NCBI GenBank assembly: GCA_019973975.1 | Contig: BMAO01019611.1 | Span: forward strand, 76,564-134,802 | Reading direction: 5' to 3' | Length of the DNA: 58,239 bases | DNA from: Trichonephila clavata | Taxonomy: Eukaryota | Shown: piece by piece, positions 4,061 through 58,239 of the stretch | Numbering within the stretch: the stretch's first letter is position 1 | Layout of the letters: each line of letters opens with the position of its first letter | Notes under the pieces: generated by a model | Databases searched by the model: none | What the model was told of the DNA's origin: nothing | Seen by the model: the letters and a program-made list of their open reading frames with translations, nothing else | Program-made: the position numbers and the translations under genes

Positions 4061-4140
4061 ATATTGCGACAAATTCTGCTGCAGAACATTAAAAAGCCTG
4101 TCGCAAATTTCGATTATTCGTTAAAGATCGAACGACAAAT

Positions 4141-4677: not shown

Positions 4678-4679
4678 GT

Positions 4680-7202: not shown

Positions 7203-7331
7203 TTGCATATTATTTTGTATGATTCTCATTTGTTGTATTTTTACCTTATTTGTATGTATTGCATGTCAATTTAAAATTTTACTACTTTTATTGCATATTG
7301 TATCGTAACTATGTTACTGGGGAAGGAGTAA

Positions 7332-7568
7332 TGTTGCATCTCTATTTATATATTATTTTTGTTTTTGTAACTTTAGTTCTTCTGATCTGGCAACAAAAGA
7401 GTTGTCAATATTGCGGCTGATGTAAGAACACGAATAAAAAGCCTACGATCGAGAATAGTTTTCTTCTGTTATTTTTAATCATTTTAAAGAGATTAATCAA
7501 TTCTAAAAAATATTTTTATTTATTCCATATATTATTCGCGACTAACTCATCTACAAACGTTTTGAATG
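7332..7568 (+). repeat. 3' LTR of the gypsy-like element
   Basis: Matches 2975-3208. It is preceded by a PPT-like GGGGAAGGAGTAA. Confidence 0.85.
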
Positions 7569-10500
7569 CAATGTAGAACACGTGTTTATATTATCATGTG
7601 ACCGTCATGAATTTAGTTCATTGCAATGGGTCGATTCATCACTAGAGGGCGCTGCGATCGTGGCCATCATCGCGTGATTAACAACGTGCGATCATGTAAA
7701 CAAATAACAGTTGATCGTATGACACTTGTGGTTGCGCGCTAACTTTCGAATTTTCAAACATTATTATTTTATATTCTTTAAATTCTTTTTAGTACTTTAA
7801 AATAGTTTTATAATAAATTTTCTACTTTTTTTAGTTTTTGTATTGTGACCAAATATATATATATAGTTTTAGTTTATAGTATTAGATTTAAGTGTTTAGT
7901 TTATACTTCTATCCTTTGGCTTCGAATTTTTGTATACTTTTAGGTTTAATAATTATTTTTTTATTAGTGCCAGCCATATTGTGATTAATAAATTATGCAA
8001 CGCTCTTTTGAACAAATTGCTTCTTGAAATTGGATAAATCTACTAATATCGCGAATCATTATGTAAGCGAGTTTTTCCGAGAAAAATTCGTGCAGACTGT
8101 AAATAGAAAGTAGCTCGCCAAAACAAAACATTGTTATGTCTTCTGTCAGCAAGAGCGATTAGTTAATACTTCGGCTGTTGAATAGGACCAAAGACTGTTA
8201 ATCAACTTATTATGATGATTGGATAATAGAGATTCCATGTAAATGTATAACCGTTACCTGAATACATTACTTATTTGTATTCCTAGACACTGTTAGTTGT
8301 GTCTGAGTGCTGTGAAGACCTCCTGGGATTTTGTGAATTCTAGCGTTGTGGCGTTTCTAAGGATTGTTTTAAGTTTTCATTGCTCCTGACCCATTCTTTG
8401 TAAGCGCAGGTATTTATTTCTTACCGAATTTGTGACATTGACTATATTTTTTTACATAGAAACTTCTTATAATTACAAAAAAGCTTGTGAATTTAACTGT
8501 TATTTTCTAATATTCATATAAAGTTTCCTTTTTGCTGTTCTTGAAAATTCATTTCGGTATTATTATTAGGACATCAAAGTTTTTAATGTTAATAATTCTT
8601 TTATTTTTTTAAAATTGTAAGGAAATATTTGTTTGCTTTACATCTATTGGACAATTTATATGCAATTCAATAACTCATTAGAAATAATTTGTAATAAAGA
8701 ATAATCCAATAAAATTTAATCATTATTCCTAAAAAAATTATGTATTAATATGATTCCTTTCTTTAACTTAATAGTGTAAGAGTATTTTCTTTTTTAAACT
8801 TTGAAGACAGTCTAAAGGGAAATTTCTAAAAGAAATTTCAAACCTTTGTAAATGATAATTACTAAGTAAAGTCAGACAATCAAAACTGGCAAATGTGTTA
8901 TTTCATTATAGATTCATCATATATTTCGAAAAATCTTACTATGTCTTGGGAATTTTTATAGAACAGTTGTTTAAAAAATTAATATACAATAACAATGTTT
9001 CAATTTTATGTATCCATATTAATGCAAATAAAGATTGAAACTGACAAAAAAAAATACTCTTTTGGAATACATCTTAAAAAAATACTCTTCATAAATACAT
9101 AATGAAGCAATGTCACTGATAGTCTTTCAAAAGAATATGAAAATGCATTTTTTAAATTACAATGGATTTCTTAATTAAAAAAAATAAAATTTTCACATGC
9201 TTCACTTGTATAAAATCATGTAATATTAAAATTAAATGTTGATAAATGATGCAAGTTAAATAATTTTAATTACTAATTTAAACTAGCTAACAAAAATTTT
9301 GTATGCTCCAAAATGTAAAAATTTTCATGAAAATAATTTAGCATGTTTCAAACAATTTCTAAAATTAATCCTATATTTTAGTATGATTCGTTTTTTTTTT
9401 TTTTCATGGGGACAATGATTTATATAAAAAAAATTCAAACATTTGTAGGTGATAATTCTAAATGTTATTATTTTACAACATATCTTTAAAGGCTTCATAA
9501 TGTATTGGTACAAATCATACTATTTTAAGGCCACACAATGTGCTAAACATTTCACAAACAATTTTGACATTTTCTTATGGCCAATATCATTGAGAAGCTT
9601 GCCACCAAATTTCAGATTTGATAATAAATTAGTTTTAAAGATATTTGAAGAGCTTAGGTTTTGGTTTCAGTTTCATTTTAAAGCAGTTTTCCACTTTTAA
9701 ATTGAATTAAAAATATTTTTGAGCCCAATCAACTCTTGCAGTGTGAAATGGTTAATTATTTCAGTTCTCATTACTAAAAGCATTTCTGCTTGATAATGTT
9801 TTGAGTTCTCATTGTTACTTAATTAAGATTGTTTTCAAGGCTAATTTTTGTTTTAAAAATAGTTTATATAACTTGAAAGCTTTATCATTAATTTTTTCTT
9901 GTTGGCCCAAACATTCTCAGGTTGCTGTGAGAAACAATATTTCGAAGAGATGGACACTACTGAAAAGGATGTATCTAAAAATCACCCTCAATTAATACTG
10001 CAATAAGACTTTTGAATTCAAGTATTGCAGATAAAACTGAATATTCCCATGATGTACTTAACTACATGATAATATATTGTCGTACTATATTTTAAAATTT
10101 ATTGCGTAATAAAGTTGTGCAATAAAACTCAAACTTGCTAAACTGTGCCCCAATTTAAAACTGATTTTTTTTTTTTTTTTTTACAAACCTGGTGATTTTT
10201 ATAGCTAAAGTTAGTATCATTATTTTATACATAAATACTTTGTATTTCAAACAGTGCTGGTTTAAGCTCATTTCAAGCACTGGGTACAGAAGATCCTCAA
10301 TTTTTAATAACAAATTCAATACTTTTTTAAACTTGCCTTTGTGTAAAATGCCTATAACATGTTGATCTACTTTTAAAAAATTATTATACAACATTAAAGG
10401 AATGTTTCATCAGAAAAGGTGCAAATATTTTAAAAAATTCAATTTAATTATCCTTAGTTTTAAATGTATTTTTCTACTTATTAAATTATATATAATTTAT

Positions 10501-12121
10501 AAAAATAGTATAATTTATCAATAAACAATAGATGGCTCCAAAATATAAGTTAAACTTGTAAAATAGAAATTAGCATATTGGATCGACTTAATATGAAAGT
10601 TTTTGAATAATAATAAATATTTATCCATGGTGAAAATGAATTTTATTTTTACAACACAATGAATTGTAAAAAAGAAAAAATTCAATACAATATATATAAA
10701 AATGAATAGTTGCATAAAATTTCCATTCACAATTTCTACTGGTTATGTATCTTGACCGGGTATTGTATGTGTAGTGCATGCAAACTAAAAACTTATTTGG
10801 AGAAATGTATTGACATTTCATTGTTATCACTAATATGTATCTAAAGTATCTTTTTATATATATTTATATTCACATTTTAAAAAAAATGGAAGATAAAAAA
10901 ACATCAGAGAGAGGGGAAAAAAGATACAAAATTCTCACTCTGAAGTTAAACGTGTGAAAATATATTATTAAAGATTAAAATCATTATTATACATCAAGTT
11001 ACTAAAGTTTATCATGAATAAATTGAGTTCCATTCTAATCAAAATCACAGTTTCTACTACTTATAAGCAATAACTAATTATAGCATTAGTTTACCAGGAA
11101 AATCCTAAATTTCAAGAAACTTTTCAGTTTCCTAAATTATACTTGAGCAAAATATTAAATTATTTCAAAGTTTGTCTAAGAAATGCTCAATCAGTACGCA
11201 TACCATTTAAAAACTTTGAACTTATGTATTAAACTGGCAAATAATTTTGCCAAGCCAAAACGCATCAAGAACTTTAAAAAGTATTATTATTACTACTGCG
11301 TTCATGAGCTATGATGCATATGAGCAGGAACAGTTCCAGTTATTGGCTGTACATTGCAACAACACCCCACAGAATCAAATGTCTATACATAAAGCCATAT
11401 TTGATTTCGTGATCCTAATTCTGAATAAATATACAATTGATGCAAGTACTCTTCTTGGGTCAATATTTGTAAGTAACTCAATGTAACAAATTTATTCAGG
11501 ACTTATAAGCAGGATAATATCAATATACATGTCTTTTAGACTTTTATATTTATGTAAAAATAAATCTAATGATATAAAGCAAATCTAATCTATAATGATA
11601 AATCTTCTACAAATTGTGCAAATACCTATAAATGCTTATTTGTAATACATAGTACAAAAATTTATACATCTCTGTGATTAGAGGCGGATTAAGCGGCTGG
11701 CGGCCGCCAGGGGCCCCGAGCACCAGCAGGGGCTCCAAGCTGATAGACTTCAGTTATAAGTTCAACGTGCAACAAAAAATCTTGTGATTGCAAATCCAAT
11801 GATTACCCACATTTGAATCGTATAACAATTAGTGTTGCCCTCATATATTACATGTAATTGCGGTTAAAAAAAAAAATCCGTCTTTTTTTTTTTTTTTTAA
11901 TATTTACCTAAACTTTGGTCTTTAATATATGTTTTCGGTTCCAAGTTTTTAAAAAGTTGATCCCAGATTTCTTTTTTCAATAATGATCCCAGATCTCAGA
12001 CTATAAAAAACTACCAATGTTTTTAGTTCTTTCGAAAGAATTTAGTATTTGAAGGTTCGTGATTTATTGTTATCTGGATTTCCGTGTTTATATTTTGAGA
12101 ATGTGGGGAAACAGATCGAAG

Positions 12122-12287: not shown

Positions 12288-15200
12288 GATCGAAGTATTT
12301 TGTAAATTTAGTATCAGTTTTATTTCAGTCAGCATGACAGAAAAAGTGAAATATTTAAGGGAAATTGAAATTTCTCTAAATTGATGAATGAATCAAATAG
12401 TGAAATAGATGAAAGTTATTTTTTGGAAAAAACTGTAGAGGATCTTTGGCTATTGATATAATTGATCACAGGAATATTTGCATACTTTCATAAGGTATGA
12501 ATTTTGCTGGCATTTTTTACCATTGGTCAACTTAAATTTGATTAACTTTTAAAGTTAAAATTTCAGGTAATGTGCATCTTGTTCTTTAATTTTTTTATTG
12601 TTTTGGTTTCATAGGATCATTTTTACACCATTTGCTTTCATATGTTCGATTTTGTGTGTTTCTAGTTTGATAATGTTTTCCTTTTAGTATTTCTACATTT
12701 TAAATTTTTGTAATATAGAGAAAGGGAACTATGTACAGGGCCAGCCATGTTGGTGGTGTGGCGGATGCTGTGCGCAGGGGCCCCAGAATAATCAAAAACT
12801 AAAATGTACTCTTGCATATGAAAACTTGACAATATTCCTATCGTAAGAAATGTGAATTTTGTCGTAAACATTACTATTGTAGATCTCTGAAATTCAACAA
12901 TCTGCAAACTAATTCTTGAAATCATGCAGACTTTAACGTTTCGCACCATCACAGATGAAGCATATAATAAGAAAGGATTTTAAATTCTGAGAAACATTCC
13001 TGAACAACATTTCTTCTTATCAGGGGCGTAGCTATCACCGTATCAATGATACGGGCTCCCCTAGAGGCTCTGGACGTGTGTAAGCAAAAAGTCGTAAAAT
13101 ATTATCAATGGTCATATTAAGAGTTCCTTTTTACGTTTATAAAATAGTATGTCACTGGCATAAAACGATATAAGTTTTCGGTGTGAATTCTGAATCTCAG
13201 GAAACGCAATAAGAAAAGTTTAAAAGCTGGTAAAATTACTCAAAATAATGAGAAGACAAGGAGTGGTGTGATCTTTGAATGTAGGAAAAACTTCTCATTC
13301 AAAGTAGATCAACAGAAAGATCGTTTGAAGTGAAATACAGATAACACTTATTAGGATGGAAAAAATCCATTCTCAGAATGTCATTTGCCTGTAAATGACA
13401 ATAACCCTTTCGTCTATTGATTGATTGACTGTAATAAACGTCGCACTAAGAAGCTACAGGAATCCCTTAGTCGGAATTTTTTTCATAGATGGTCCAGTGA
13501 AGGAAAGTATTATATTATATTTATCCCGGTTCTCTTTTTTTTTTATTTCTGTAACAACTAAGAGACTGGATATGCATTCATGGTGAGCAAGGGCTGGATA
13601 ACTGCTTCCCGTTCCGATAAAAGATAGGACCATAAGCGCCTGAAGTCTTCTGTCACCCTCCAAGTCTATAGTTAATTATTTTTCAATTAGTATCAATGAG
13701 TTCTCAACGTTGGTTCTCTGGGGAGAGGGGGGAGAAGCGCGTTAAAGAAGAATTTCGGCACATTGGACAAAGCACGATCAAGATTTATGACTGGCTTAAG
13801 GACGAATGAAAAGAATGGGACAGAATGACCCTGAGAAAAAGACCCCTTTTCGAAGTAAACTGAGGAAATTTTGCATCAATTTGACTTCCGAACTAATTTC
13901 TTTTAGCTTCCTGCGCTTATACAGACAAATCGGAGAACCGTGTTTAAACAACAAAAAAAGGTAACTATATTTTCATTTTCAAATTCTCTTTTAGATTTTT
14001 AAGATTTAATGCGCAGGTATTTTAATCAGTGCGTAAGATAAAGTGAAAAAAATATTTTGTTGCATTTGTGTCATTACTATTTTATTTATTTATTTATTTT
14101 TCGATTTACATACATAAATATAAATAACTGCCATCAGTTTCTTAGAACATTTTTATGATTATTAATATATTTAAATGTGTTTTCGTAGCTTGAATCTTAA
14201 AACATTTTCGATTGGCATTGTTATTCAAATGAAAAAATATTATTTGCCTCTCTTATAAAAATAATTTCTTGAGTCAGTTATAAAAAGCGATAATAGTTCA
14301 TTTAAAATACAAAACATTAATGAGATTTTGAGTACATTCATTAATTATTTACCATACTTAAAAGAATCCTAACAATAACTCGAAATTGAAATAAAACGTT
14401 ATTATATTTATTGTGATTTTTTGTTTGTAATCCTAACGTATTACGATAATTTTGTTTAGTAATATATGAGCCAATCTATAATTTCTAAATATTTCATTAA
14501 AATTGTTTCAAACTGTTAAAAGAATTTTCAAAGAAAGAAAGTATATTAAGTTTACTTAAAAATACACTTTTCTTTCTTTTTATTGAGCGACGTGAAATAA
14601 ACACATAATTTTTCTAATATACTTTAAAACTGCTAAGAGAACCATTATTTTGTAAGATTAAATTTGAAAAGCATAAATTCTTTTTGTCTTTTTTGTATTT
14701 ATTGTCATTTTAAGAGTGATTTGCTCACGATACTTTTTTGATTAAGATCTTTTGTCCAGACAACTTGAAGGGATATTCAGTGCAATCTAATAATTAAATA
14801 TATGTGTATAACTAATTATAAAAATACATAAAAATCGTATAATTATTTTAAAATGCATAATTTCTTTAAAATATTGTATAACATTCTGTATGCTTCTAAT
14901 AAAGTTAATCAAAATTCTGATCTATAACTATATTTAAAATCTTTAAAAAAGGCAACAATGCCAATACTATAGCAGAAATTTCTTTAAAAAAGCATTTAAT
15001 GAAATGTTTATTTTTACAGAACAATTATAAATGTTGAAAAATATAGGTACTATATTTATAGGTAATTGCTCCTAGTTTAAAACTATTTAAAGTGGTTGCA
15101 AAATGTATTACAGAAATAAAAATATGATAAACTCAATTTATAAAGTAGATAAGAGAGAGAGAGAGAGTGATTTCAAACAAAATAGAAATGTGAAAAGTTA

Positions 15201-30505: not shown

Positions 30506-32647
30506 TCAAGAGCCAAAACATTATGACCACCCCTACATTTTGCAATGAACTCGCCTGGATGACGTGGAAGGCACGCGATCAGGTGGAAGTGGTATTTAAC
30601 TGCTGCTGGAGAGTCTGAAGAATCATTCTTTCACTTACTTATGTGTGTGACGGGAAAGGCTGCGGATCTAAGCGACTTTGATAGAGGGCAGATTGTGTAA
30701 TGGCTCGGAACAAGTATTTCCGAAACTGCACGACTCATGGGTTGTTCGCGATCTGCACTTGTTAGTACAATAGAAGTCCGATAATCCGGCACGTTCGGGA
30801 CCGGCTCGGTGCCGGACTACCGAAAATTCCGGTCTATCGGGCGGTAATTATAAGAACAATTAGGTTAATAATTAAACTACAAATACAGTATGCAAATACA
30901 TACAACAAAGTTTATTTTACATTTCATATAATATATGTACACGTACTGTTTCATCAGCATTGTAAATCTGTTCAGGTGTTAAATCATTATCAGCCACGAT
31001 TTTCTCAAACTCGTCTTTGTATTTTTCTGCAGAGTTTGGTTTGCTGAAAGTGCTTCTCCAGTTACATCAAGTCTTCGAATTCCATGCCGAAACTTAAAGT
31101 TTCTGAGCCAACCATCAGAATAATTACATTCACTTTCAGCCAACTCCTAAATCTTGGCGGAATTTCTTTGCCTTTTCAACAATCATTGGCCCTGTTACCA
31201 ACTTTCCTTCAGAACGTAATGCACTAAACCATTTGAACAATACACTATCTACCTGTTCCAGTTTTGGTTTTTTTAATGTTTGTCTAGAAGCCAATTTTTC
31301 AGTTGTTACCGATTGAGAAGCAAACTTCATTAGTTCATCTTTTTGTTTTTTAATGTCATAAATAGTTGATGAGCCAATATTAAACTTATCCATTAAAACA
31401 TTTCAATTCTCGCCTTTTTCTAGCCGTTTGATGATTTCTAGTTTCTGATTGAGAGTCAGTGTTACGTGTTTTCGTTTCTCTCCTTTTGAACTCGAAGGCT
31501 TAGGTTTTGAAAACATGGTCACTGTACAGTTAGAACGAAAATCACTTTTTTTATAAACAGTTTCAAAAGTTACGTTTACTGCGATGTGAAAGGACACAAA
31601 ACAACAACGCACAAAAAAATGGCGAAGACGCTTCGTGATTGATTAACGGAGCTGCACTGCACATGAATTTGTTGTGACAGCTGAGACTAGCCGGCCGATA
31701 ATTGTTTCCGAACACTACCGAGCGCTTCCGGATGATCCCGAACTACCCCGAAAACTTCCGAGTAGCTCTCGAGCGTTTTTATTTGCTTTAAAGACACACT
31801 TTTGGAGAAAACCAAAATTTTTACAATTTTCCGGAGCGATGCCGGACTATCGGGCATTCCGGACTGTTGGATGCCGGACTAATGGGCTTCTACTGTACTT
31901 ATGCAAAGTGGATGAATGACGGTGAAGCCAGCAGTAGACGACATGGTGTTGGACGTCCACACGCTATCAAAGAAAAAGGTCGCCTGAGACTGTCTCGCAT
32001 GGTGAAGCAAAACCGGAGCCAGACAGTGGCTCAGTGGGAGAGAGTTGCCTGGTCAGATGAATCACGGTTTGTCATTCATCACGCCGATGGATACGCCGTC
32101 TTCCAGGCGAACAGTTGCTCCCTCAATATACAGTAGGTCATACACAGGCCGGTGGTGGAGGTATTATGCTTTGGAGGACGTTCTCTTGGGCGTCTCAAGA
32201 ACCCGTGGTTGTGGTAGAGCAGATCATGAATGCTACAGGGTATTTGAACATTATTGCGGACCAGTTGCACCCTTACATGGCCTTTTTTTCCAGCTGGAAA
32301 TGGAATCTTCCAACTGGACAACACCCCGTGTCACAAGGCTAAAATTGTGTTGGAGGGGGTTCCAGGAACATGATGCTGAATTCCAGTTAATGTCCTGGCC
32401 GCCTATCTCACCAGATCTCAATCCGATTGAACACATTCGGGATGTCATGGGACGGCAGCTCAGAGTTCAAAGACCACCAATTCACAGTATCTCGGATTTG
32501 CATGACCGTTGTTTAAACATCTGGTACAATCTGCCTCCGGCCATCTACCAAGGACTTGTGATATCCATGCCAAGGCGGGTTGAAGCTATGTTGCGCGCCA
32601 ACTCGTTATTGACAGGTGTTCATAATGTTTTGGCTCTTGAGTGTATA
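30499..32647 (+). mobile_element. Tc1-like DNA transposon with 33-bp terminal inverted repeats, a decayed transposase and a nested insertion
   Basis: TIRs TACACACTCAAGAGCCAAAACATTATGACCACC (30499-30532) and GGTGTTCATAATGTTTTGGCTCTTGAGTGTATA (32615-32647). Transposase pieces: KAADLSDFDRGQIV (HTH, 30650-30780), YAKWMNDGEASSRRHGVGRP…WSDESRF (31890-32100), GGGIMLW…, QLDNTPCHKAK, WPPISPDLNPIEHIRDV…(32045-32662). The left end lies in a (TA)n tract. Confidence 0.8.
30784..31879 (-). mobile_element. pogo/Tigger-like non-autonomous element (deletion derivative retaining only the N-terminal CENP-B/psq-type HTH region) inserted into the Tc1 element at a TA
   Basis: TA at 30782-83 and 31880-81 flank ATCCGGCAC… / …GTGCCGGAC-like inverted termini. 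The ends carry repeated GCCGGACTA(T/C)CG motifs. Minus-strand ORFs 31403-31612 (…KGEKRKHVTLTLNQKLEIIKRLEKGEN) and 31136-31393 (MDKFNIGSSTIYDIKKQKDELMKF…) are typical of the pogo transposase N-terminus. There is no DDE domain. Confidence 0.6.
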
Positions 32648-34539
32648 GTCAGTTCTCGGTAACACGAAGTTGAATGGACCAATGAAAAACTTCTAATTAT
32701 CAAGAGAATAGGAAAAAAATCCCAAAATACACGAAAAGAAATTTTTTTCTAATTTGAAACTATGTAATAACAATTGTACATATGTATAAAATTATTTAAA
32801 AATATTTTTAAAAAGTGGATATTAATGTATAGTATAAATATTATACAGAAGTTAAAAGTCCTGTATTAAAAGAATACATTTATGAATTAGAAACTATAAA
32901 AAGAATACTAACTGTACATAATTAATTTTTTTGACGAGAAAATCTGTTATCTTTTTTTGTTTTATGGCATTCAATGTAACTTTGTCAATAAATTTTTTTA
33001 GAATAAATGAAGCTTGAAAAATGTCTCCATCAACATGATTTCGAAGGGAAAAGTTGCTTAGTTTGTTTAACGACACTTTAGCTTCGGTCAGAGTTATCGG
33101 AGTCAATCAACTCCGGTGGTCATTAAGGCTACGTTAAAGGGGCTACGTTACAGGGGAGACAGCAGAGACAATACAATACAAAACATGTAAGCTCTAGCCT
33201 GTTTGCTACAGGACTCTACATGGTAGTGAGCGTTTGAACTGTTGAGAGTTTCATTTGATAACTTCGAATTATTGCGTGTTATATTCTGGTCAGTCACGGA
33301 TTTTACTTCGGAACATTGAGTGTACTAAAACGTATTGTTTTAGTTTGAAATATCAAGAGTTTTTCTAGGGACTGAGCATATACTTCGAATTAGCGAGAGG
33401 TTTGTATTATCGAAGGTTTGAATTACTGAGAGTCGACTGTATATATGTAGGATATCCCATTGAACTCTTTTTGTAAAAGGTTAGATCATATCCCTGTACA
33501 GAGGACGGTAATTTTGGTTAAAACAGAGCATTCCAGATCAACGCCATCTGGCGGGCTTATAAAACGCCGACATCAACTTTTTTCGGCAGAAGTCCACTAA
33601 CACTTGACAACGAAGCAGCACACCCGCGCCCGTTCGCGGTAACCAGGCGGTTAGTTGCAATCCCATCGCATGATGAGTTTTAAAGCCTTGGGCCCTCCGC
33701 TGTGTGGGGGTTACGGGGATGTACTTTACGCCCCTGTCTCCTACCCCCTTCTTTTTTGCCACTGAGATGGATTTTTTCCTTTACTACCATTTTTTAAGTA
33801 AATGGCATGTCACAATTTAATCAATTTTATTTCAAAACCTAAAAAGGAAATTATTGTTAAAATAATGAAGATGTTAGTTTTGTGTATAATATACTTTTTT
33901 TCCGTCAGGCGTGTTTAAATAATTTGCATAACACAGAGTGGAATGAAAAACTATAAAATTAAAATAAAATACTAAAATGTTTTTATCAGATAGTATTGTT
34001 CTTTTAATGTTTTTTTTTCAGTGAATGTAAACATATCATCCCCCATGGTTTTTTTCTTTTTTTACACTTACGTATGTTTAATCAAACACATTCAAAGATT
34101 TCAGAAAAAAATCGTTTCAAGAGCTATCTGTAGAATTTTTTTTATTATTATTTATAGATAATGGATTTAAATTATATATATTTTAAAACAAAAGGTACAT
34201 TTCTGTTATTTCATTCTAAATTAATAATTTGTTAATAAAAAGTGTATCATCTATTGTTTTGGATGAAAATACGTTTTAAAGACATTTTTAAGGTAACTGT
34301 AGGTAATGTTTGATTGATTAATGAAAGTCTGAAATCTGTTTTATTAATTTAGATTCTTAGAAACTATCTATTATTAAAAAATGATGAAAGTGTGTTTTTG
34401 TTTTACTCTCGGCATCAGAATCGTTTTAATTTTATTGCTTAAAAAATATTTTTTTTAACTAAAGCAATGTTCTTTTTTATAAATCTCTGATCAAAATTTG
34501 AGGATAAATCTTATATCGGGGGAGGGGAAATAGTTCTAC

Positions 34540-42890: not shown

Positions 42891-43715
42891 TCACAAAGTT
42901 TTTTCCTTGGTATGAATCCGTAAATGTTTTTTTAAGCTATTACTATGTGAAAAACTTTTTTTACACATTTGACAAACATAAGGCTTTTCCTTTGTGTGAA
43001 TACGTAAATGTCTTTTTAAATCAACAGCTTGGGAAAACCCCTTGCTACACATTTCACAAATGTGGGGCTTTTCTTTGGTATGAATCAATGAATGTCTTGC
43101 TAAATGACCACTTCGAGAAAAAGAATTGTTGCATATTTCACAAACATAAGGCTTTTCTTTTGTATGAATACGTAAATGTCTTTTTAAACCAACAGCTTGA
43201 GAAAAACTCTTGCTGCATATTTCACAAACATAAGGCTTTTCCTTTGTATGAATGCGTATATGTCTTTTTAAATCCCAACTAACATAGAAAGACTTATTGC
43301 AGAATTCACAAACATAAGGCTTTTCCTTGGTATGAATCTTCAAATGTTTTTTCAAAGAACCAGTATGATTAAAACACTTATTGCACACTTCACAAATGTA
43401 AGGCTTTTCATTGGTATGAATCGATACATGTTTTTTTAAATCACAAAATGCTGAAAAACCCAGGTTGCAGCTTTCACAAACATGAGGCTTTTCTTTTGTA
43501 TGAATATATAAATGTTGTTTTAAATTACCAGCCTGAGAAAAACCCTTGTTGCATATTTCACAAATGTAAGGCTTTTCATTGGTATGAATCAATAAATGTC
43601 TTTCTAAATGACTTTTTTTAGGGAAAGACTTGTTGCATATCTCACAAACATGAGGCTTCTTATTGACATGAACCTGCAAATGACACCTTGAGTTATCATA
43701 TAAAGAGAAAGCCAT
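42891..43715 (-). CDS. C2H2 zinc-finger protein, ~9 tandem fingers with HTKEKPY linkers. This is the intact copy, with ATG at 43715 (the listed 43745 start is GTG).
   Basis: [83 protein letters not shown]… ending …[12 protein letters not shown] candidate 3' splice acceptor (TCTTACAG) lies 14 nt upstream of the ATG on the coding strand. Confidence 0.8.
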   Translation of the reverse strand: MAFSLYDNSRCHLQVHVNKKPHVCEICNKSFPKKSHLERHLLIHTNEKPYICEICNKGFSQAGNLKQHLYIHTKEKPHVCESCNLGFSAFCDLKKHVSIHTNEKPYICEVCNKCFNHTGSLKKHLKIHTKEKPYVCEFCNKSFYVSWDLKRHIRIHTKEKPYVCEICSKSFSQAVGLKRHLRIHTKEKPYVCEICNNSFSRSGHLARHSLIHTKEKPHICEMCSKGFSQAVDLKRHLRIHTKEKPYVCQMCKKSFSHSNSLKKHLRIHTKEKTL

Positions 43716-45587
43716 TTTACCAATTTTCACTGTAAGATTTTCCACAGATAAGTCTAGTTAAAATCCACAATAAAGAAATGGATCTTGCAGTCTTGAACAG
43801 AATAGGAGTTTTTATTCAATCCTTCTATAAAAAAACAAAAAATATTTTTCAGTAAAATGTTGAAAATGCAATCAGAATTTTATTCTACATTTCAATTAAT
43901 GAAAGAAAAAAATTAGCTGGGTATCAGATTTTTAAAGAATTCGGTAAGAGAACTCCCCCCCCCCTTATATTCGAAGAAATTGGTTGGCTTTTAGACAGGA
44001 CTTTTACTGAAATGATTAAAATCAAAAAAATATATATGAAATATTAGTTACTGAAAATATATTCAAATACTACTTTAGAACAATGCTCAGGTTAACATAA
44101 GCAAAATGACAAGAAATTATAAGAATATCATGATAAAATGAGAATACCTTCTCCCGAGAATTCAAAGAGGATATGCATTGTGTAATGGTACAAAAAAACA
44201 AGGAAAATTATAAAATTGGAAAAGAAAAAAAAAAGCACTGTAAGGCCTATATTTTATCTGTTAGACTTTTGATCTCAATTACGGTTCAGATTACAAGTGA
44301 CAAAAGCTACTGGCAATATACAACACAATTTTTAACAATAAATCACAATATCATTGGAGAAGATTTTTGAAATTAGAAAAAGATACTCTTTGTAATCTTT
44401 TGATTTACACTTTTTTTATGAAAAGAAAATTTTACACCAGAAATTATGCAAGAATTAGACTACTCTCCTAGCATGGTAACACAAAAGATATATACTCATA
44501 CTTTATAACTGAAGAAACTTAAGAATAACTTTATTGAAAGAATGGGCTGGATCCTAGCTGGGCACACTTCTTGGGGACAAAATTTTTGGTGATAAAAGTT
44601 TACAATATGGTAACCCTGCAAAATATAGGGAATAGTAACCCTATTCAGACTGGATTTTTTTAGTTTTTCCTGATTTGGACAGCAGTCATTTTTTTCCCTG
44701 ACGATCAACTTGAAGACGTGCAAGATTTTTCTAGAAGGCTAAAATTGAAGGAATGAGTGGATTTTTTTTCTTTTTTTAAAAAATGAAACAACTGCTGAAA
44801 GAATCTTTGTTAGACAGAAAAGGAGACATGTTGATAAATTCAATTTGGACGATGGTTTTTCTCACTATTGCATCTTACAAGCACCGGTTTTTCTGTTTTC
44901 TTCTTGAAGCCATTATGTAAGCCACATTTTCTTTTTTGAAGCTCAGCAAATGGATATATTTTCTTTTGAATGAAAGATGTAAGAAAGAAATGCTTGCTTT
45001 TTGAATGAGTAAACAATTGAAAATACTTCGGTAAGAATAGATGTCCAAAATATGAAAATAATTTGTTTTTGAGAGAAATGGAGATCGTTATTTCATCAGC
45101 CTAAGGCATTCATATTGGACCCCCCCCCCCCACTGTAGCGTTTTAGAAGCATTGCTTGTTCAGTTTTTCTTGTTGAAGTTGTTTTAGAAACCACATTTTC
45201 TTCATAAAAACACGACAGATGTATTTTTTTTAAATAAAAGATAAGGAATTAATGATTGTTTTTTGTACGAATGAAAGATTGATAGAATCTTGTAATAGAT
45301 GACCGAAATTTGCATTTAATTTCTTATTTTTAATTTTATGTTCCCTATGTGTCCGTCTTAGAAACCACATTTTTCGTCTCTTGATGCCACTTTGAAAACC
45401 ACATCTTCATCTCTGACACAATTTTGAAAAATGAATTTTTTTACTTGACGCCATTTAGCGAAAAACTTTTGTCGCTAAATACAGCAACGTGCTGCGCTAG
45501 GATTTTACCAAAGAATGAATAGGACCTATTAGCTAATTTATCTTGGATACAATTTCATAAGAGCCTTTGTTTCTTATGTTGCATGAC

Positions 45588-47299: not shown

Positions 47300-48732
47300 G
47301 GAAAATGCCTAGTAGCACATCTCTCAAAGTTTTTTCCTTGGTATGAATCCGTAAATGTTTTTTTAAGCTATTACTATGTGAAAAACTTTTTTTACACATT
47401 TGACAAACTTAAGGCTTTTCCTTTGTATGAATACATTAATGGCTTTTTAAATCAGAATTATCAGAGAAAGACTTATTGCAGATTTCACAAACATAAGGCT
47501 TTTCCTTTGTATGAATCTTCAAATGTTTTTTCAAAGAACCAGTATGATTAAAACACTTATTGCACACTTCACAAATGTAGGGCTTTTCATTGGTATGAAT
47601 CGATATGTTTTTTTAAACCACAAAATGCAGAAAAACCCAGGTTGCAGCTTTCACAAACATGAGGCTTTTCTTTTGTATGAATATATAAATGTTGTTTTAA
47701 ATTACCAGCCTGAGAAAAACCCTTGTTGCATATTTCACAAATGTAAGGCTTTTCATTGGTATGAATCAATAAATGTCTTGCTAAATTACCACTTCGAGAA
47801 AAAGACTTGTTGCATATTTCACAAACATAAGGCTTTTCTTTTGTATGAATACGTAAATGTTTTTTCAAATCAGAATTATCAGAGAAACACTTATTGCACA
47901 TTTCACAAACATAAGGCCTCTCCTTTGTATGAATACGTAAATGTCTTCTTAAATCCCAACTAACATAGAAAGACTTATTGCATATTTTACAAACATAAAT
48001 CTTTTCCTTGGTATGAATCTTCAAATGTTTTTTCAAAGAACTAGTATGATTAAAACACTTATTGCACACTTCACAAATGTAAGGCCTTTCATTGGTATGA
48101 ATCAATATATGTTTTTTTAAATGAGAAAATGCAGAAAAACACTGGTTGCAGCTTTCACAAACATGAGGCTTTTCTTTTGTATGAATATATAAATGTTGTT
48201 TTAAATTACCAGCCTGAGAAAAACCCTTGTTGCATACTTCACAAATGTAAGGCTTTTCATAGGTATGAATCAATAAATGTTTTGCTAAATGACCACTTCG
48301 AGAAAAAGACTTGTTGCATATTTCGCAAACATAAGGCTTTTCCTTCGTATGAATCTTCAAATGTTTTTTCAAAGAACTAGTATGATTAAAACACTTACTG
48401 CACACTTCACAAATGTAAGGCCTTTCATTGGTATGAATCAATATATGTTTCTTTAAATGAGAAAATGCAGAAAAACCCTGGTTGCAGCTTTCACAAACAT
48501 GAGGCTTTTCTTTTGTATGAATATATAAATGTTGTTTTAAATTACCAGCCTGAGAAAAACCCTTGTTGCATATTTCACAAATGTAAGGCTTTTCATTGGT
48601 ATGAATCAATAAATGTCTTTCTAAATGACTTTTTCTAGGGAAAGACTTGTTGCATATCTCACAAACATGAGGCTTTTTATTGACATGAACCTGCAAATGA
48701 CACCTTGAGTTATCATATAAAGAGAAAGCCAT
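47300..48732 (-). pseudogene. C2H2 zinc-finger gene copy 3 (13 fingers up to 47587, then a 2-bp deletion frameshift; 3 more finger-coding repeats and an in-frame stop downstream). It is either truncated or a pseudogene.
   Basis: ORF 47587-48786 (GTG start; ATG at 48732) ends …KKHIDSYQ*, where the paralogue reads [16 protein letters not shown] versus ATACATG at ~47600. The downstream frame carries DLKSH* at ~47450. Confidence 0.7.
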
Positions 48733-49745
48733 TTTACCAATTTTCACTGAAGATTTTCCACAGATAAGTCTAGTTAAAATCCACAATAAAGAAATGGATC
48801 TTGCAGTCTTGAACAGAATAGGAGTTTTTATTCAATCCTTCTATAAAAAACAGAAAGTATTTTTCAGTAAAATGTTGAAAGTTGTAATCAAAATATTATT
48901 CTACATTTCAATTAATGAAAGAAAAAAATTAGCTGGGTATCAGATTTTTAAAGAATTCGGTAAGAGAATTCCCCCCCCCCCTATATTTGAAGAAATTGGT
49001 TGGCTTTCAGACAAGACTTTTACTTAAATGATTAAAATCAAAAAAATATATATGAAATATTAGTTACTAAAAATATATTCAAGTAATACTTTAGTACTAG
49101 GATCAGATTAACCTAAGCAATGACAGGAAACTAAAGGAATATCATGATAAAATAAGAATACCCTTTTTGAGAATTCAAAGAGGACATGCATTGTGTAATT
49201 GTGCAAAAAAACCATAAAAAATTATAAAATAAACATTGCAATGCCTATATTTTAACTGCTTGATAATTGGTGTCAATTACAGTTAAGATTATAATTAACA
49301 AGAAAGCTATTTGTGTAATAGACAACACAATTTTTAACAATATATCACAATATTATGGGAGAAAATCTTTGAAACTGCAAAAAAATTTTCAGCAAAGGGA
49401 TTTTTAAATTTTTCTAGAAGTATTCTAGGAAAGTTTCTTTTCTAGTAGTATCTTTTTAAATTTAGAAAAAAGAAATTTTTTTCTTTTTTTATAAATTTAA
49501 AAAGATACTCTCCACAATACTTTGATATACACTTCTTTTTATACAAAGAAAATTTTACACAAGAATTAGACTGTTCTGCAGGCAAGGTAACACAAAAGAA
49601 ATATACTGATATTTTATAACTGAACAAACTTAACAATAACCTTATTAAAGCAATGAATAGGCTGTAGTAGAGGTCTTTGACACAATTGCATGAAAGTCAT
49701 TGTTAATGCTGCTACGCTTCCTGGATCCTGTATTAACTAAAAACC

Positions 49746-51310: not shown

Positions 51311-53699
51311 ATCCATTATCGTAGAGGTTTTTTTTCCCCTTTAGGACTTTTGACGCACACGATTTGTGTCGTTCTCAAGTTATAAATATTTGTATAATTT
51401 TATGTAATAATCAGGTAATTGTTGCTTCTTATACTATTTGAACTCAGATCGTTAGAGGAATCAATAAAAAATTGTATTGATTCAGAGACTTCATTTAATT
51501 AGCAATCTTTGCATGATTATGAAAGATGATCGTCTGTACACACTTTCGAAGGCAAGTTAATATCTTTAAACACAATTGTAACAAATGACGGGGAAAAAAA
51601 ACAAAATCTTATTCGACTAGAAATACCATAGGAAAGTGAATAAGTAGTGAGAAAGATGAAACTTGCGAATGAATATGATATATCCCGAAATTGCCAGACT
51701 TACCTAACAAAGAATAAAAGAAATCAGGAAAGAGCCACATACATTGCGCCAAACTGCCATTTAAAAGCCCATAGGGACAAGGAAATCCTAATGTTAAAAA
51801 TAACTGAAATCACCAGGAGGCGCTGACATCGAGACAGACAGGGAAAATTTCCCTTAGGGAAATTTAGGGGGAAATTTGAATTATATATTTGAGTAGTGCG
51901 TCCGTGTTTTATTGTATTTTGAAAAGTAAGATTTTCTTTGGCTTGCTGTAAATAATTTTTTTACTAGCCCATTATTTAACGATTTGGCATAAGTTCGATA
52001 TAAGGAATTTTTTTTTGGCGCCTCGTTCGGGCGATTATGCGCTCGAACCCTCCCTATATGTAAGGGTTATGTTCCCTATATGTAAGGTTACTTCAAATAA
52101 GTCTGATAGATAAAAGGAACAAACAAGGCCGGACGTGTAATGCGCGATTTCGTTGGCAGCACCTATTCCTATTTTTTACAGAGTTGGAATTGAAATTTCT
52201 CTGTTTTGGGGTTGCTATATTTAGCTCGTTATGAATTATTGGCTACTTTCAAAATAATTACAATAAAAAAGTGCAATGTATTGTATTTTTTAAATATGCT
52301 GTGTTGAGTGTGTGTGAATCTAATAACCTATTATAAATATTGTGCGTTTATTGTTTATAACTTTACTACTGAACAATTTCAATGTTTTTTCAATTTTTGT
52401 TTGAATTTTAAGATATAAATATGTTTTCATTGTTTATTTGTTGTATACAAGTTCACACATTAGAAATATGGTATGTTTATAAAATAAAAATTAAGATTAA
52501 ATTTTTAAAAATATTAAATGAAACTGGAAAAACAAATGTAGAACTGTAACTATATTGTAGATTTAAAATAGAAGAGTAAAATATTTTAGTTTTTTGATAT
52601 ATTTTTGATTATTTGCAATTTTTAGTGAATTTAAATAATCCTTATAACATTTGAATCAGGTTTAGCAATTTTTTTCTAAACAGACACTTGAGGATTATTG
52701 TTACAAAATCCTCTTAACTTTTGCAGCTGAAATTAAATCATATTTTCATTTAGAGCAATTCTTATATTATATATAGTATAATAAAATGAAAAAAAATAAG
52801 ACAAAATTATACTACCCACAAAGCTAAATGATAGAAAACAGATTCTAAGAAACATAACTAGAAAAATATTGATATATATATATATATATAATAATTATAT
52901 GTATGTATTAATGATAAAAGAAGAAAATTGTGTTTTATATTTATCTATATCATATTGACTGTTATAAAATGGTAGGAATTACATGCATTGCCTTTTAAAT
53001 ACTGTTTAGAATTAAAATTATTTTCAGCTTATGCTAAACAAAAATTGACTTCAATTCCATATAATATATTTATGTTTGTTTTCTTTCTGTTTCAATTTTT
53101 CATGTTTTTGACTTTCTGTGAGTGTTTTGTTTGATAGATGTTGGATAGTATTACATCCATTCCTCATGTAATTTAACCCTACAGTGAATTTAATTTAATA
53201 GTTTATTATAATATAGGCCTATTTTAGATTTTTTTAAAAAATTTTTAGTTTGTACCAGTTGAAGGCTTCCAAATATTTTATTTATGAAAGTATTTTTGTG
53301 AAATGGTTTATCATAATTAATTTTTTTTCTTATGATTTATATATTTCAAGTTATTTTACTCACAGTTCTTGTTATAAACTGAAGCGAAATAAAAGTGCCG
53401 CTAGGCGGCGTTGTTTTTGACGTCAGTCTGCGAGCTGACGAATAGATTCAGAACTGGTTGTGCTCTCAGGAGTGGATCGAGACAGCACTTTGCAACCTGA
53501 AATTTTAGCGCCATCTGTATTATAATATGGAGACTATCGCATTTTATTTACATTTTGGATAATTTTTACTTTTGATTTCTTGTTATTTTTTGCTTTATTT
53601 TATTAATTGTTTTATTATCTTTCTTGCTATTTTAATTAGTTAATTTGTTTTTTAATTTTCTGTATTCAACTTTTTTATACTTACTGTTTTCAAAAATGG

Positions 53700-55922
53700 A
53701 GACTGAAATGAATGTACATACCACAGACTTAATCTGCTCATTTTGTGATCTAGACTTCACTCGCTCTTTCTGTTTGAAAAGGCATTTGAAAAATGTTCAT
53801 GCTCACCAACAGGGTGATTTAAATGAAGGGATTTTGAAGGAATTCAATACTTTCAGTGGTTTATATTGTTGCATTGTAAAATTTAGTTTATAAATTTACA
53901 CTGTAATAGTATGAATTTTATACATTTACGTATTAATGTTTTCTATTAAAGTTCGCGTAATTTTATATTAATAAATGTAAACTTTCTTTTAATTAACATT
54001 ATAGAATTTGTTACATGGAAAGAAAAAGAAAACAAGACCATGTCAAAATATGTTAGACAACGAGGAAGTAAAACACTTAAAAATGGAGACATAGTGATGA
54101 ATTATCACTGTTGTCGAAGTGGGACATACAAACCAAAAGGAAAAGGTGTCAAGAGTTTAAAGTCACAAGGCTCTGTTAAAATTGGAATTAGTTGCCCAGC
54201 AATAATAAAAGTTAGACAGTACTGAAAATGTAGTAGTGCAATATTTTCCGAATCATAAGAATCAGTTAGAGCACTTAGGGTTATCAGAGTCTGATAGGGC
54301 AGCTGTTGCTGGTATAGTATTTTATTTATGTAGTTTTATTATTCTTAGTTTTATTATTAGTTACTATTGTTAGTTTTGTTTATTTATTTTTCAGGACGAT
54401 TAAAAGAAGGTGTTAGTGAAAAAAAATTCTGCAGGATATTAGAGAAGAAATTACTGTTGACAGTGGCAGAAAGATGCTTATTGAAAAAAAGGATATCCAT
54501 AATATTAAAAGGGACTTCAATATTAATGGTTATATTAAAAGGCATGAAGTTGATGCAGTGAGTGTCAAGCTATGGACACAAGAAATGAAAAATAATGGAG
54601 AAAATTGTATTGTTTTTTTCAAAGAGCAGAGACAATCAGAGAATGACTATGGATTGAAAGATGAAGATTTTGTCCTCATAATCATGACAGATTTTCAGAA
54701 AAAAAATGATTACAAAATATGGAAAGGACAAAATTTGTATAGATGGAACACATGGGCTAAACAGCTATGATTTTAATTTATACTCAGTTGTGGTAGTCGA
54801 TGAACATAAGAATGGAATACCTGTGGCATTTTGTTTTTCCAACAAAAGTTCTGAAGATGTATTCAGAATTTATTTTAGTGCTATTAAAAATGCTGTGGGT
54901 ATAATTGAAACTACAACATTTATGACTGATGATGCTCCAGCATTTTATAATGCTTGGAGTTATGTGATGGGCACAGTTAAAAATGTCTTATTGTGTGCTT
55001 GGCACGTTACAAGAAATTGGCACCAAAATTTAAATAAATTAAAAATCCTGAAAAGAGAAAAATTGTTAATAAAGCATTAAAGGCATGAAAGAGGAACTAT
55101 GTTTAGAAACATTTTCTAAACTTATGAAGCAATTCATACAAGAATTGTTAAATGACTCGGACACTTGTGAATTCGGAAAATATTTCCAACAGAATTATGC
55201 TAAGAGACCAGAAAAATGGGCCTATTGCTACAGGAAGGGTCTGGGCATAAATACAAACATGTATTTGGAGTCCCAATAAAAAAATTAAATATCATTATTT
55301 TGAGGGAAAGCATGTCAAGAGACTAGACATTGCAATCAATGGTCTTTTAAAACTGGTTAGAGACTTAATATTTCAATGCCTAATAAAAATTACAAAAAGA
55401 ACCATTTCCTCTGATAAACTATCAAAAATTGTCAATAGCCACAGATTAGGCCTAGAGATTCAAAGCAATAAAATTGAAAAATTAGCAGATAGCGAGTGGA
55501 AAATTGAATCCAATCATTCTAACTACCTAATATGCAAGAAAGAAGAAGAATGCCATAGATTATGTAATATAAAATGTACTGCCTGCAAAATTTGTATCCA
55601 TTCCTATACATGCTCTTGTGTAGACAATTTAATAAGAGGAAATATTTGCAAGCACATTCATAAAGTTGCCAAAATGTTTTTAAATGATACACATAATGAA
55701 GAAATACAAGAGATTTATGTAAATCAAAATGATATTTTAAAAGAAATATTCGATGTTTTACCATGTAGCTCCAAATCTGCTAATAATGATGGTCATGAAT
55801 CCAAAAAAAGAAAAATTGAAAGCATTCTTGCTCTTTTTGATGAATACGAGCTTACACTAGAAGAAAGTAAAATTCATAGGAACCTAGATAGTATATTTTT
55901 CATTTTTTGTTACTTAAAATGA
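53700..55922 (+). pseudogene. MULE (Mutator-like) transposase: N-terminal C2H2/FAR1-WRKY-like DNA-binding region, MULE catalytic domain and SWIM zinc finger. It is spread over 4 frames (≥3 frameshifts), and the sequence is otherwise well preserved.
   Basis: LICSFCDLDFTRSFCLKRHLKNVH. YHCCRSGTYKPKGKG…GSVKIGISCPAII. DGTHGLNSYDFNLYSVVVVDEHKNGIPVAFCFSNK…FMTDDAPAFYNAWSYVMG…LLCAWHVTRNW (MULE domain). WAYCYRKGLGINTNMYLES. SWIM: CTACKICIHSYTCSCVDNLIRGNICKHIHKV. Confidence 0.75.
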
Positions 55923-55949
55923 AGAAAAGAATCAAGGTAAAATGTCTTA

Positions 55950-56244
55950 CTTTGTCAATGGAGGGCTGCCACACATCGTTTCAAGTCAAAATCCATGAAT
56001 AAAAAGTCCTTTTGTGAATTTATATGTTTTTAATTTCTACAGCACACATAACAAAAATACTCGGGATATTACACGACACTAATTAATCTAAACAAATAAC
56101 ATTTATAAACATCTATATCAATTCTAGTTTCGACCGCGTAGTTTCAGTATGTTTCTTCTACGCGTCCATTTTTAATTCTGAGTCAATTCGTTCCTTTTAC
56201 AAAGGTGGCGCTGCTGTCGCTTTAAGAAGATGGGAGTTTGTGAC
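55950..56244 (-). repeat. Putative 3' LTR of the BEL/Pao element. The start is reasonably marked, but the end is not determined.
   Basis: On the minus strand a purine tract AAAGGTGGGAGAG (PPT-like, + coords ~56245-56257) is followed immediately by TGTCACAAACTCC… (LTR-like TGT start). The 5' LTR lies outside the window, so the length cannot be confirmed. Confidence 0.3.
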
Positions 56245-56430
56245 ACTCTCCCACCTTTGGATTCGAAGATGTAGAAGAATCCAAAACAGCAGTCACAAGA
56301 GTAAGAATAAATGTCCTGAAAAAAGACTAAAAAACACATTAAAATAACTATAAGAAATAAAATTAAAGTCCATAAAAGTTCAAATATGAGTCCAAAATTA
56401 GCATGATAAAAATCATGACTTCATGATAGT

Positions 56431-58239
56431 TTATGGATTATCAAGTCTCTTGGTTTGTTTCAAAAGTCTTCCATAACGAGAACGGAGCACTCCTTGCACC
56501 TCAGGGATTTGATCTTGATCGAGGCAAGAACCATTCTCTACATCTCTTTCTGTTGATGACAAAGAGTCAGCTGTAGTCACTTCTAGCGGATAGAGTTTCT
56601 GAATTGGTCTCATAACACTTCCAAATTGTGTTTTCACTTCCGCTACACGCACTCTTCCATCTTTTCCTTTACACATCCTTGTGACTTTACCTAGAGGCCA
56701 GTTGATTCTTTTGTTGTTGGTATCACCAATTAGAACGAGATCACCTTCTTTAATGAACGACTCTCTTTTAACTTTTGAATAATCTTTCAATATCCCTAGA
56801 TACTCATTTCTGAAGCGGTTTCGCAGATCTTGACGCAATTTCAGCCTATAAGCACACCTCTTGTTCAATCTTTTTCAATCTATCATGTCCAGATCTGGAA
56901 CACCAACCTCTCTAATTTCCTGGAGAAACATAGATGGTGTAAGTGCTGATAGTTCATCAGGATCCTCTGAGTGGTATGTTAAGGGGCGAGAATTAATTAA
57001 ACTCTCTGCGTCGCATAACACAGTGACCAATTCTCCTTCGTTCAAACAAGCTCTCCCCAGAACTTTTCTCAAAATACTCTTCAATAATCCTATCAGCCTC
57101 TCCCAGAAGCCACCCCACCAGGGTGCAGCAGGAGGACTAAATTTCCAGGAAATTCTTTTTTCTGATGCAAAATTTTCGATTTTTTTTCCCAATTAATATT
57201 CTTTAAAAAATTGGCTGTGCCCACAAGATTCTTTCCTTTGTCAGAATAAACAGTGGAAGGACGTCCTCTTCTAGCTATGAACCGCCGAAGAGCCAGTATA
57301 AAGCATTCGGTGGACAAAGGTGACACCAGCTCTAAATGCACAGTTCGGTAAACAGCACAGGTGGCAAGCACTATCCAGCACTTTTTGTCAGTTTTTAGGA
57401 ACAAAGGTCCACATAGGTCAATGCCAGTAACTTCAAAGACAGCAGAATCCCTGACTCTGTCTTCTGGAAGAGGAATGCTCACGGCTTCCAATGGACGGGC
57501 AGAAAATCTTCTACACTTGGCGCATTTTCTTATCACGCCTCCCACTGTCTTTCTACTCTTAATTATCCAAAAGGATTCTCTGAGGCATGACATCAGTGTC
57601 TGAGTACCTGCATGTTCTAACTCTATGTGTTTGCTCATTATCAATTTTTCGACCATTTGATGCTTGTGGGGCAACAGTACTGGAAATCTAAAAGTCTGTA
57701 AATCTTTCCTCGATGCAATTCTAGTTTCAACTCGTAGGAGATCATCGTTGTCTTTCACAATTCGCAAGTTCAACTTCTCTCCTCCTGAAAAAACTTCTCT
57801 CTGTATTTCCTTCAAAATTACTTTTTCCGATGCTTTAATTTCGTCTGTTTCCAATTTTCCCTTTTTCCTGTCAATAGGGTTTCTTTTCACATTCTTACAA
57901 AATCGGATGACATATGCCATTATTCTTACGATTTTGTTAAAAGAAGATATTTTCTGAAAAAATGTAAATCTACAAAGGTCTAAAGCAGTAGTTGTGAGTA
58001 CAGTTCTTCTTCTCTCGGAAATGACTATTTCCATATCGGGCTTTATTTCACTAGCTGGCCATTCTTCATGGGGTAGTTTTAACCAGTCGGGTCCCTCCCA
58101 CCAATGGGATTTCAATAAGTCTTTAGGATTGCACCCCCTTGAGGGCAAATCTGCTGGATTAAATTTCCCTTGAATATGTCGCCAAGCTTCTGGATCCGTC
58201 AATTTCCGTATTTCATTGACTCTGTTAGTTATAAACGCA
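56431..58239 (-). mobile_element. 3' part of a BEL/Pao-type LTR retrotransposon pol (RNase H end + integrase). It continues beyond the window edge, and the internal region ends at ~56431.
   Basis: Minus ORFs: 57093-58202 (…NPADLPSRG…[47 protein letters not shown]…GIDLCGPL…). 56875-57192 (…[20 protein letters not shown]…). 56431-56868 (IN C-terminus). The pol frame is interrupted between these ORFs. Confidence 0.75.

Follow-up and report, generated by a model that had tools for sequence, protein, structure and literature searches.

A broken Mutator-superfamily transposon copy, probably young and Spectre-related, in Trichonephila clavata

A 58,239-nucleotide stretch of the Trichonephila clavata genome (assembly GCA_019973975.1, contig BMAO01019611.1, positions 76,564 to 134,802 of the forward strand), referred to here as the window, contains a Mutator-like element (MULE) transposase-like coding region on the + strand, at 53696-55942 in window coordinates. 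Does this region represent a functional transposase gene, a host gene derived from one, or the remains of a mobile element, and how old is it? Our answer, to which we assign a probability of about 0.9, is that 53468-55942 makes up the 5′ two-thirds of one broken copy of an autonomous cut-and-paste transposon of the Mutator superfamily, related to the Spectre clade, interrupted by a long terminal repeat (LTR), young and pseudogenised, in a region rich in transposable elements. The copy is a real but ordinary transposon relic. The DNA around it is AT-rich and animal, and tblastn located only this one MULE copy within the 58-kb window.

The six-frame reading of 53600-56000 gave nine in-frame pieces on the + strand, which were joined into a conceptual protein of 667 residues. 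Pfam recognised in it the MULE domain PF10551 (E 2.9e-11, 44.1 bits against a cut-off of 27.6) and the ZSWIM1-3 RNaseH-like domain PF21056 (E 3.2e-7). The protein database search returned 208 homologues, and the best 120, which are the ones listed, all had E < 1e-90 and were spread across arthropods. At the top were T. clavata and T. clavipes proteins named “MULE domain-containing” or “SWIM-type domain-containing”, with 78-94% identity; the next-ranked among the best 120, from cockroach, beetle, aphid, planthopper, locust, tick and other spiders, were 32-59% identical. In the homologue alignment, the first catalytic Asp mapped to 54742-54744 (in ICIDGTH), the second to 54928-54930 (in FMTDDAP) and the catalytic Glu to 55268-55270 (in NMYLES), with a CxxH motif (in LLCAWH) between the second Asp and the Glu. 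All four elements were aligned and conserved, and the spacing in the window copy is D-62-D-114-E. The identification of a MULE transposase at 53700-55922, made earlier in a sequence-only reading of this stretch, is borne out by the domain match, the aligned DDE residues and the 208 homologues.

The same reading distinguished three modules, namely an N-terminal DNA-binding region, a DDE-like core and a SWIM finger. The core is present, and so is the motif C-S-C-x9-C-K-H (CxCx9CxH, CSCVDNLIRGNICKH) at 55611-55655, which every aligned protein from spider, cockroach, beetle and aphid retains; UniRef names two of the homologues, P0003 and P0007, SWIM-type domain-containing. The N-terminal finger matches were sub-threshold in Pfam. 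They comprise a single canonical C2H2 finger, C-x2-C-x12-H-x4-H, at 53735-53800 (zf-C2H2, E 0.0046), and a FAR1/WRKY-like region (PF03101, E 0.014, 16.6 bits, below the cut-off of 28.1). C2H2 fingers occupy the equivalent place in insect homologues, and exon 1, which encodes the finger, is kept in the T. clavipes consensus.

Indels and splice sites were called from a multiple DNA alignment of the window copy with copies from T. clavipes, for which the comparison set comprised six copies (L001-L004, L006 and L007). The coding region is predicted to consist of three exons, with a family-conserved start codon at 53708 (Table 1). The splice dinucleotides of intron 1 are kept in all aligned copies, homologous proteins run uninterrupted over the junction, and the T. 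clavipes gene model P0002 uses the same acceptor. Likewise, the splice sites of intron 2 are kept in all five aligned copies, and the homologues are continuous over it as AGKLKEGV. An intron had been guessed at ~53890-54000, close to the GT-AG intron 1 predicted here.

The family ends were placed where homology between independent copies breaks off. Window positions 53539-55897 are 87-89% identical at the nucleotide level to L001-L004, with unrelated flanks. Homology begins at the left terminus AGGAGTGGATC in the window (53468) and in L001, L002, L003, L006 and L007, each with a different flank, and the right terminus, ...GATCCACTCCT, was placed in L004, L002 and L006, which hold both arms of the terminal inverted repeat (TIR). 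L006 is complete, with 5,278 bp at its positions 6252-11529, TIRs of 68-70 bp (~93% identity) and an 8-bp target-site duplication (TSD), CTGCTTTG; its open reading frame (ORF) is broken despite the complete ends. The terminus motif occurs at both ends of L006 and once in the window, where the 5′ TIR is missing 17 internal bp that the 68-70-bp T. clavipes TIR has, and the leader is without a 66-bp block present in the T. clavipes copies. The family combines a MULE DDE domain and TIRs with a TSD, known from L006, whose 8 bp fall within the 8-11 bp of the Mutator superfamily.

An inverted-repeat scan of the window came up empty, since of the two TIR arms the window contains just the left one. The observation that there are no long TIRs is explained by the absence of the right arm and by a TIR length of only about 70 bp, and it is no evidence against mobility; the 5′ TIR at 53468-53518 had been overlooked. 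A 47-56-bp inverted repeat in L001 was considered as the whole TIR and rejected, since L004, L002 and L006 put the true terminus 21 bp farther out. No TSD was recovered in L001-L004. The right end of L001 is truncated, L002 has an internal inversion and flanks that do not match, the contig of L003 ends before the copy does, and the left end of L004 is degraded. All six T. clavipes copies are disrupted, by frameshifts and also by the inversion in L002 and a Tc1/mariner insertion in L007. A consensus of five copies restores the three exon frames except for two breaks, which we attribute to alignment at variable sites.

Rebuilt from the T. clavipes copies, the intact element would measure ~5.3 kb, with 68-70-bp TIRs starting AGGAGTGGATC and an 8-bp TSD. 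Its three-exon gene would encode a transposase of ~780 residues with a C2H2 finger, a FAR1/WRKY-like finger, the DDE/RNase-H-like core, the SWIM-type motif and a conserved C-terminal tail, followed by a 2.4-kb 3′ noncoding region. The N-terminal zinc fingers would bind the TIRs, and the DDE centre would drive excision and reinsertion of the element.

The window copy can no longer do this. It carries seven window-specific frameshifting indels (Table 1) as well as in-frame ones, among them a 9-bp deletion at 54250 that removes the second His of a conserved HxxH, and which it has in common with the T. clavata protein P0001. Its homology to the family stops within 55897-55942: every homologue ends at 55897-55907 in tblastn, and the DNA alignment ends at 55942. 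Because homology ends there, the C-terminal ~70 conserved residues of full-length homologues (...KRIKMMESSTINIKKKIEKQLGYFS...FDHTY) are missing, and along with these last ~70 codons the copy has lost its right TIR and the 2.4-kb 3′ noncoding region. With seven frameshifts, a lost zinc-ligand His and no 3′ part, the window copy is dead, unable to encode a transposase. The sequence-only reading had described it as nearly intact, with single frame slips at three places, and neither description held, given the seven frameshifting indels, the two introns and the lost 3′ part. It had singled out the reading MYLESQ* in place of the family sequence, the outcome of the 2-bp deletion at 55274, as well as the BEL/Pao LTR on the downstream side, for which the putative minus-strand LTR starts at 55943.

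Table 1. Features of the window copy and its surroundings, in window coordinates
Feature	Position	Strand	Description
Segment X	53069..53368		100 bp beyond the 5′ end of the element
Expected target-site copy	53460-53467		8 bp left of the 5′ TIR; GTGCTCTC
5′ TIR	53468..53518	+	AGGAGTGGATCGAGACAG...CCATCTGT; start of homology to independent T. clavipes copies, flanks differ
5′ untranslated leader	53519..53695	+	~85% identity to all T. clavipes copies
Exon 1	53696..53858	+	C2H2 finger; from translation and T. clavipes consensus
Intron 1	53859..54004	+	GT..AG, phase 1; predicted from conserved splice sites and protein continuity
Exon 2	54005..54311	+	FAR1/WRKY-like zinc-finger DNA-binding region; deletions at 54217 and 54250
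Indel	54217		-2; exon 2
Intron 2	54312..54394	+	GT..AG, phase 1; predicted from conserved splice sites and protein continuity
Exon 3	54395..55942	+	MULE DDE/RNase-H-like core and SWIM-type CxCx9CxH; from Pfam, protein and DNA alignments, tblastn
Indel	54424		-1; A8 run, exon 3
Indel	54699		+1; A8 run, exon 3
Indel	55035		-1; exon 3
Indel	55085		-1; exon 3
Indel	55274		-2; exon 3, yields “MYLESQ*”; family sequence MYLESLHKKIKY
Indel	55921		-7; exon 3
Inferred BEL/Pao 3′ LTR	55943..56245	-	303 bp, TGT...ACA; termini read from sequence, boundaries within about 3 bp
BEL/Pao pol remnant	56431..58239	-	Integrase zinc-binding domain and DUF5641; continues past window end

How long ago was this copy inserted? 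The family numbers at least six copies in T. clavipes, mutually identical up to 96-97%, and at least 32 annotated fragments on different contigs in T. clavata, all in one 90% cluster. Compared at the protein level with the T. clavata consensus over 490 residues, the window conceptual protein differs at 18 (3.7%), five of which lie in its scrambled tail. The window insertion is probably young, because this divergence is within the range of T. clavata copies relative to their own consensus (0.8-8.6%). The T. clavata protein P0128 is 0.8% from the consensus, and its exon 3 is uninterrupted through FDHTY. Against the T. clavipes consensus, the window copy gave a ratio of nonsynonymous to synonymous divergence (dN/dS) of 0.23 (dN 0.047, dS 0.21) over 628 codons, eight of them mis-framed; the mis-framed piece adds one artefactual stop to every sequence and leaves the result unaffected. 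This ratio suggests that the divergence between the two lineages was mostly built up under selection for a working transposase, as is expected where a transposon lineage persisted by activity. The earlier suggestion of recent activity is plausible for the family, in view of the 3.7% divergence and the open exon 3 of P0128, and does not extend to the dead window copy: the family is young and may still be active.

As reported by Dupeyron et al. (2019, Mobile DNA 10:12; PMC6446971), arthropods host two MULE clades, Spectre (group 8) and Ghost (group 7). Spectre elements have a C2H2 finger, 74-76-bp TIRs and an 8-bp TSD and occur in aphids, bugs, beetles, a scorpion and spiders; their type element, on Myzus persicae scaffold 1342, is 9.5 kb long with 74-bp TIRs. 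Ghost elements, found in arthropods including spiders, have a SWIM finger, and neither TIRs nor TSDs were detected for them (PMC6446971). In the supplement of that study, LOC111035218 (M. persicae), LOC103312776 (T. castaneum) and LOC111517119 (L. decemlineata) share a cluster with the Spectre type element and Repbase MuDR-1x_AP, and Ghost sequences are in another cluster (PMC6446971). The three proteins correspond to our homologues P0045, P0072 and P0096, which matched the window protein with E 5e-114 to 3e-97, and no Ghost-cluster protein from the supplement passages compared was among the best 120 of the 208 homologues.

The Trichonephila family resembles Spectre in its arthropod hosts, spiders included, in a MULE DDE transposase preceded by an N-terminal C2H2 ORF or exon, in its TIRs (~70 bp vs 74 bp in the type element) and in its 8-bp TSD. 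It differs in being just 35-45% identical to the aphid and beetle members, in having a conserved CxCx9CxH where the table of Dupeyron et al. gives C2H2 alone for Spectre, and in its size, 5.3 kb with a 2.4-kb 3′ noncoding region vs 9.5 kb for the type element. With Ghost, which is listed with a SWIM finger, it has in common the occurrence in arthropods including spiders; unlike Ghost, it has TIRs and a TSD, and its spacing between the first two catalytic Asp residues is 62 rather than 84 residues (PMC13359780). Muta1 and Phantom, insect MULEs of group 20, include a system whose activity was shown experimentally (Muta1; Liu and Wessler 2017, PMC5225508). They too are described as animal cut-and-paste elements of the Mutator superfamily with a DDE transposase and TIRs, but they form a separate clade. 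The Trichonephila element appears to be a new family within an already described clade. Moreover, the earlier view of MULEs as rare among animals no longer holds for arthropods (PMC6446971, PMC13359780): Chen et al. (2026) found complete MULEs in 222 arthropod species including Araneae, with TIRs of typically 20-95 bp and spider elements of 5.5-7 kb (PMC13359780).

We must also note the points that weigh against our reading or against parts of it. Once the frames were repaired, the window copy showed no nonsense substitution, and two of its seven frameshifts (54424 and 54699) lie in A8 runs; for these two reasons, some of the indels could be assembly errors. The Pfam SWIM model PF04434 had no match at E <= 10 in the C-terminal segment of the window copy and none at E <= 1 in the full conceptual protein or in three homologues. 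The closest described relatives appear to be the Spectre clade, because three strong homologues belong to the Spectre cluster and the C2H2 exon, the ~70-bp TIRs and the 8-bp TSD match; this assignment is indirect, drawn from shared homologues and architecture. The BEL/Pao element at 55943 is either a nested insertion into the MULE or the mark of a deletion. Finally, the right end of the window copy and its own TSD are outside the visible DNA.

Is the gene then functional and currently active, with assembly-level indel errors in place of real frameshifts? The A8 runs and the missing nonsense substitutions would fit such a gene, as would a private amino-acid divergence of only about 3-4% and the adjoining BEL/Pao pol, likewise broken beside T-runs. 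Nevertheless, deletions of 2, 2 and 7 bp are not homopolymer errors, the BEL/Pao LTR stands in place of the ~70 conserved codons, the right TIR and the 3′ region, and disruption is also seen in six out of six copies of T. clavipes, which come from a different assembly, all of which makes an active gene at this locus very unlikely. At the other extreme, an ancient, long-dead relic of a family extinct in the T. clavata genome would agree with the broken state of all copies examined as DNA, and with the fact that no full-length Trichonephila protein of ~780 residues was among the best 120 of the 208 homologues. This explanation, which we regard as unlikely, is hard to reconcile with the 3.7% distance of the window copy from the T. 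clavata consensus, the high mutual identity of the T. clavipes copies, the almost undiverged P0128 with its uninterrupted exon 3, and a TIR that is still recognisable.

Domestication, which had been raised for this copy, would make it a MULE-derived host gene analogous to ZSWIM1-3 of vertebrates or FAR1/FHY3 of plants, with which it shares an RNase-H-like core (PF21056), a SWIM-type motif and a sub-threshold FAR1-like N-terminal finger. The PF21056 match, the between-lineage dN/dS of 0.23 and the presence of introns are all compatible with such an origin; purifying selection, however, is also expected of an active transposon lineage. Whereas ZSWIM1-3 and FAR1/FHY3 are single-copy host genes without TIRs, the Trichonephila sequence is multi-copy, at non-syntenic sites with unrelated flanks at each locus, has kept its TIRs and 8-bp TSD, and has a disrupted ORF in the window copy, a pseudogene, and in all T. 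clavipes copies examined. A domesticated gene is accordingly the least credible of these explanations, with next to no chance of being correct, and we retain the broken, probably young transposon copy.

The locus is mostly a routine item of repeat annotation. What it contributes is a curated description of a Trichonephila MULE family, with AGGAGTGGATC termini, ~70-bp TIRs, an 8-bp TSD, a three-exon gene and a length of ~5.3 kb. With it, the many fragmentary gene models that the annotations of T. clavata and T. clavipes call “MULE domain-containing” or “SWIM-type” can be masked, and orb-weavers join the hosts recorded for Spectre-type MULEs. Should there be intact copies, the family would be a candidate active animal MULE.

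The element flanking the copy on the right is assigned to BEL/Pao on the basis of its pol domains, DUF5641 (E 7.7e-18) and Integrase_H2C2 (E 2.4e-6) in Pfam; its reverse transcriptase (RT) would lie beyond the window, and its LTR boundaries are putative. A purine-rich tract on the BEL/Pao element strand (56246-56258) adjoins the inferred LTR, and no second copy of this LTR was found for comparison. The pol is 67% identical at the nucleotide level to an element in the T. clavipes locus L004 that encodes PF05380 Pao_retrotransp (RT) and DUF1759. It is divided among three ORFs in different frames (56431-56868, 56875-57192 and 57093-58202), with the frame changes beside T-runs, and is either decayed or affected by homopolymer assembly errors. 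If BEL/Pao is nested, the MULE is expected to resume beyond the BEL/Pao 5′ LTR from the codons for MMESSTINIKKK and to end ...GATCCACTCCT, followed by GTGCTCTC.

On the left, segment X (Table 1) matches, in inverted orientation, a piece of the 3′ noncoding region inside every T. clavipes copy, with 71-75% identity over 235-321 bp in blastn (for example, L001 17923-18229). No further copies of it were found in the window or elsewhere in the T. clavipes loci compared. We considered segment X as a long TIR and rejected it, as the family termini lie inside it and each T. clavipes copy has the segment in its interior. The segment may be a dispersed repeat with no relation to the element, what is left of an older fragment in inverted orientation, or flanking DNA that was captured. 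Capture of DNA by Pack-MULEs is well known in plants; to our knowledge, it is hardly documented among animals. That a spider MULE lineage, possibly still active in T. clavata, captured or transduced flanking DNA in the Pack-MULE manner is a speculative reading of segment X, and a quite improbable one.

The relatives of the family outside Trichonephila (P0005, P0006, P0022, P0087, P0090 and P0110) have a patchy distribution. The nearest among the best 120 of the 208 homologues are a Periplaneta americana protein and a protein from an unidentified Logan contig, both 59% identical. More distant are proteins from Argiope (39%), Nephila pilipes (40%) and a frog, Ranitomeya imitator (also 40%). Horizontal transfer, old paralogous lineages or contamination may account for this pattern.

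The T. clavipes loci contain further features. Nested in the MULE 3′ region of L007, the Tc1/mariner element (13115-14739) has an intact-looking DDE_3 ORF of 257 residues. In L001 (10001-16935), gene model P0002 connects the MULE exon-2 acceptor with a THAP-domain exon that lies beyond the TIR, ~4 kb upstream, and is either an annotation chimera or a host-transposon fusion transcript. Genes with the unrelated PF20700 ‘Mutator’ domain are found a few kb from two T. clavipes MULE copies (L001 22740-24277 and L007 1-56), which points to another Mutator-type family within these repeat-rich regions.

Elsewhere in the window, 3236-7202 on the + strand is the interior of a Ty3/gypsy-like LTR retrotransposon, with four ORFs corresponding to a DUF7041 gag-like protein, a weak aspartyl-protease match, RT-RNaseH and integrase. 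Two long ORFs on the - strand (42891-43745 and 47587-48786) code for 8-12 C2H2 zinc fingers each, in tandem, and probably represent exons of host poly-zinc-finger genes that are paralogues. A Tc1-like DDE_3 remnant is present at 32045-32662.

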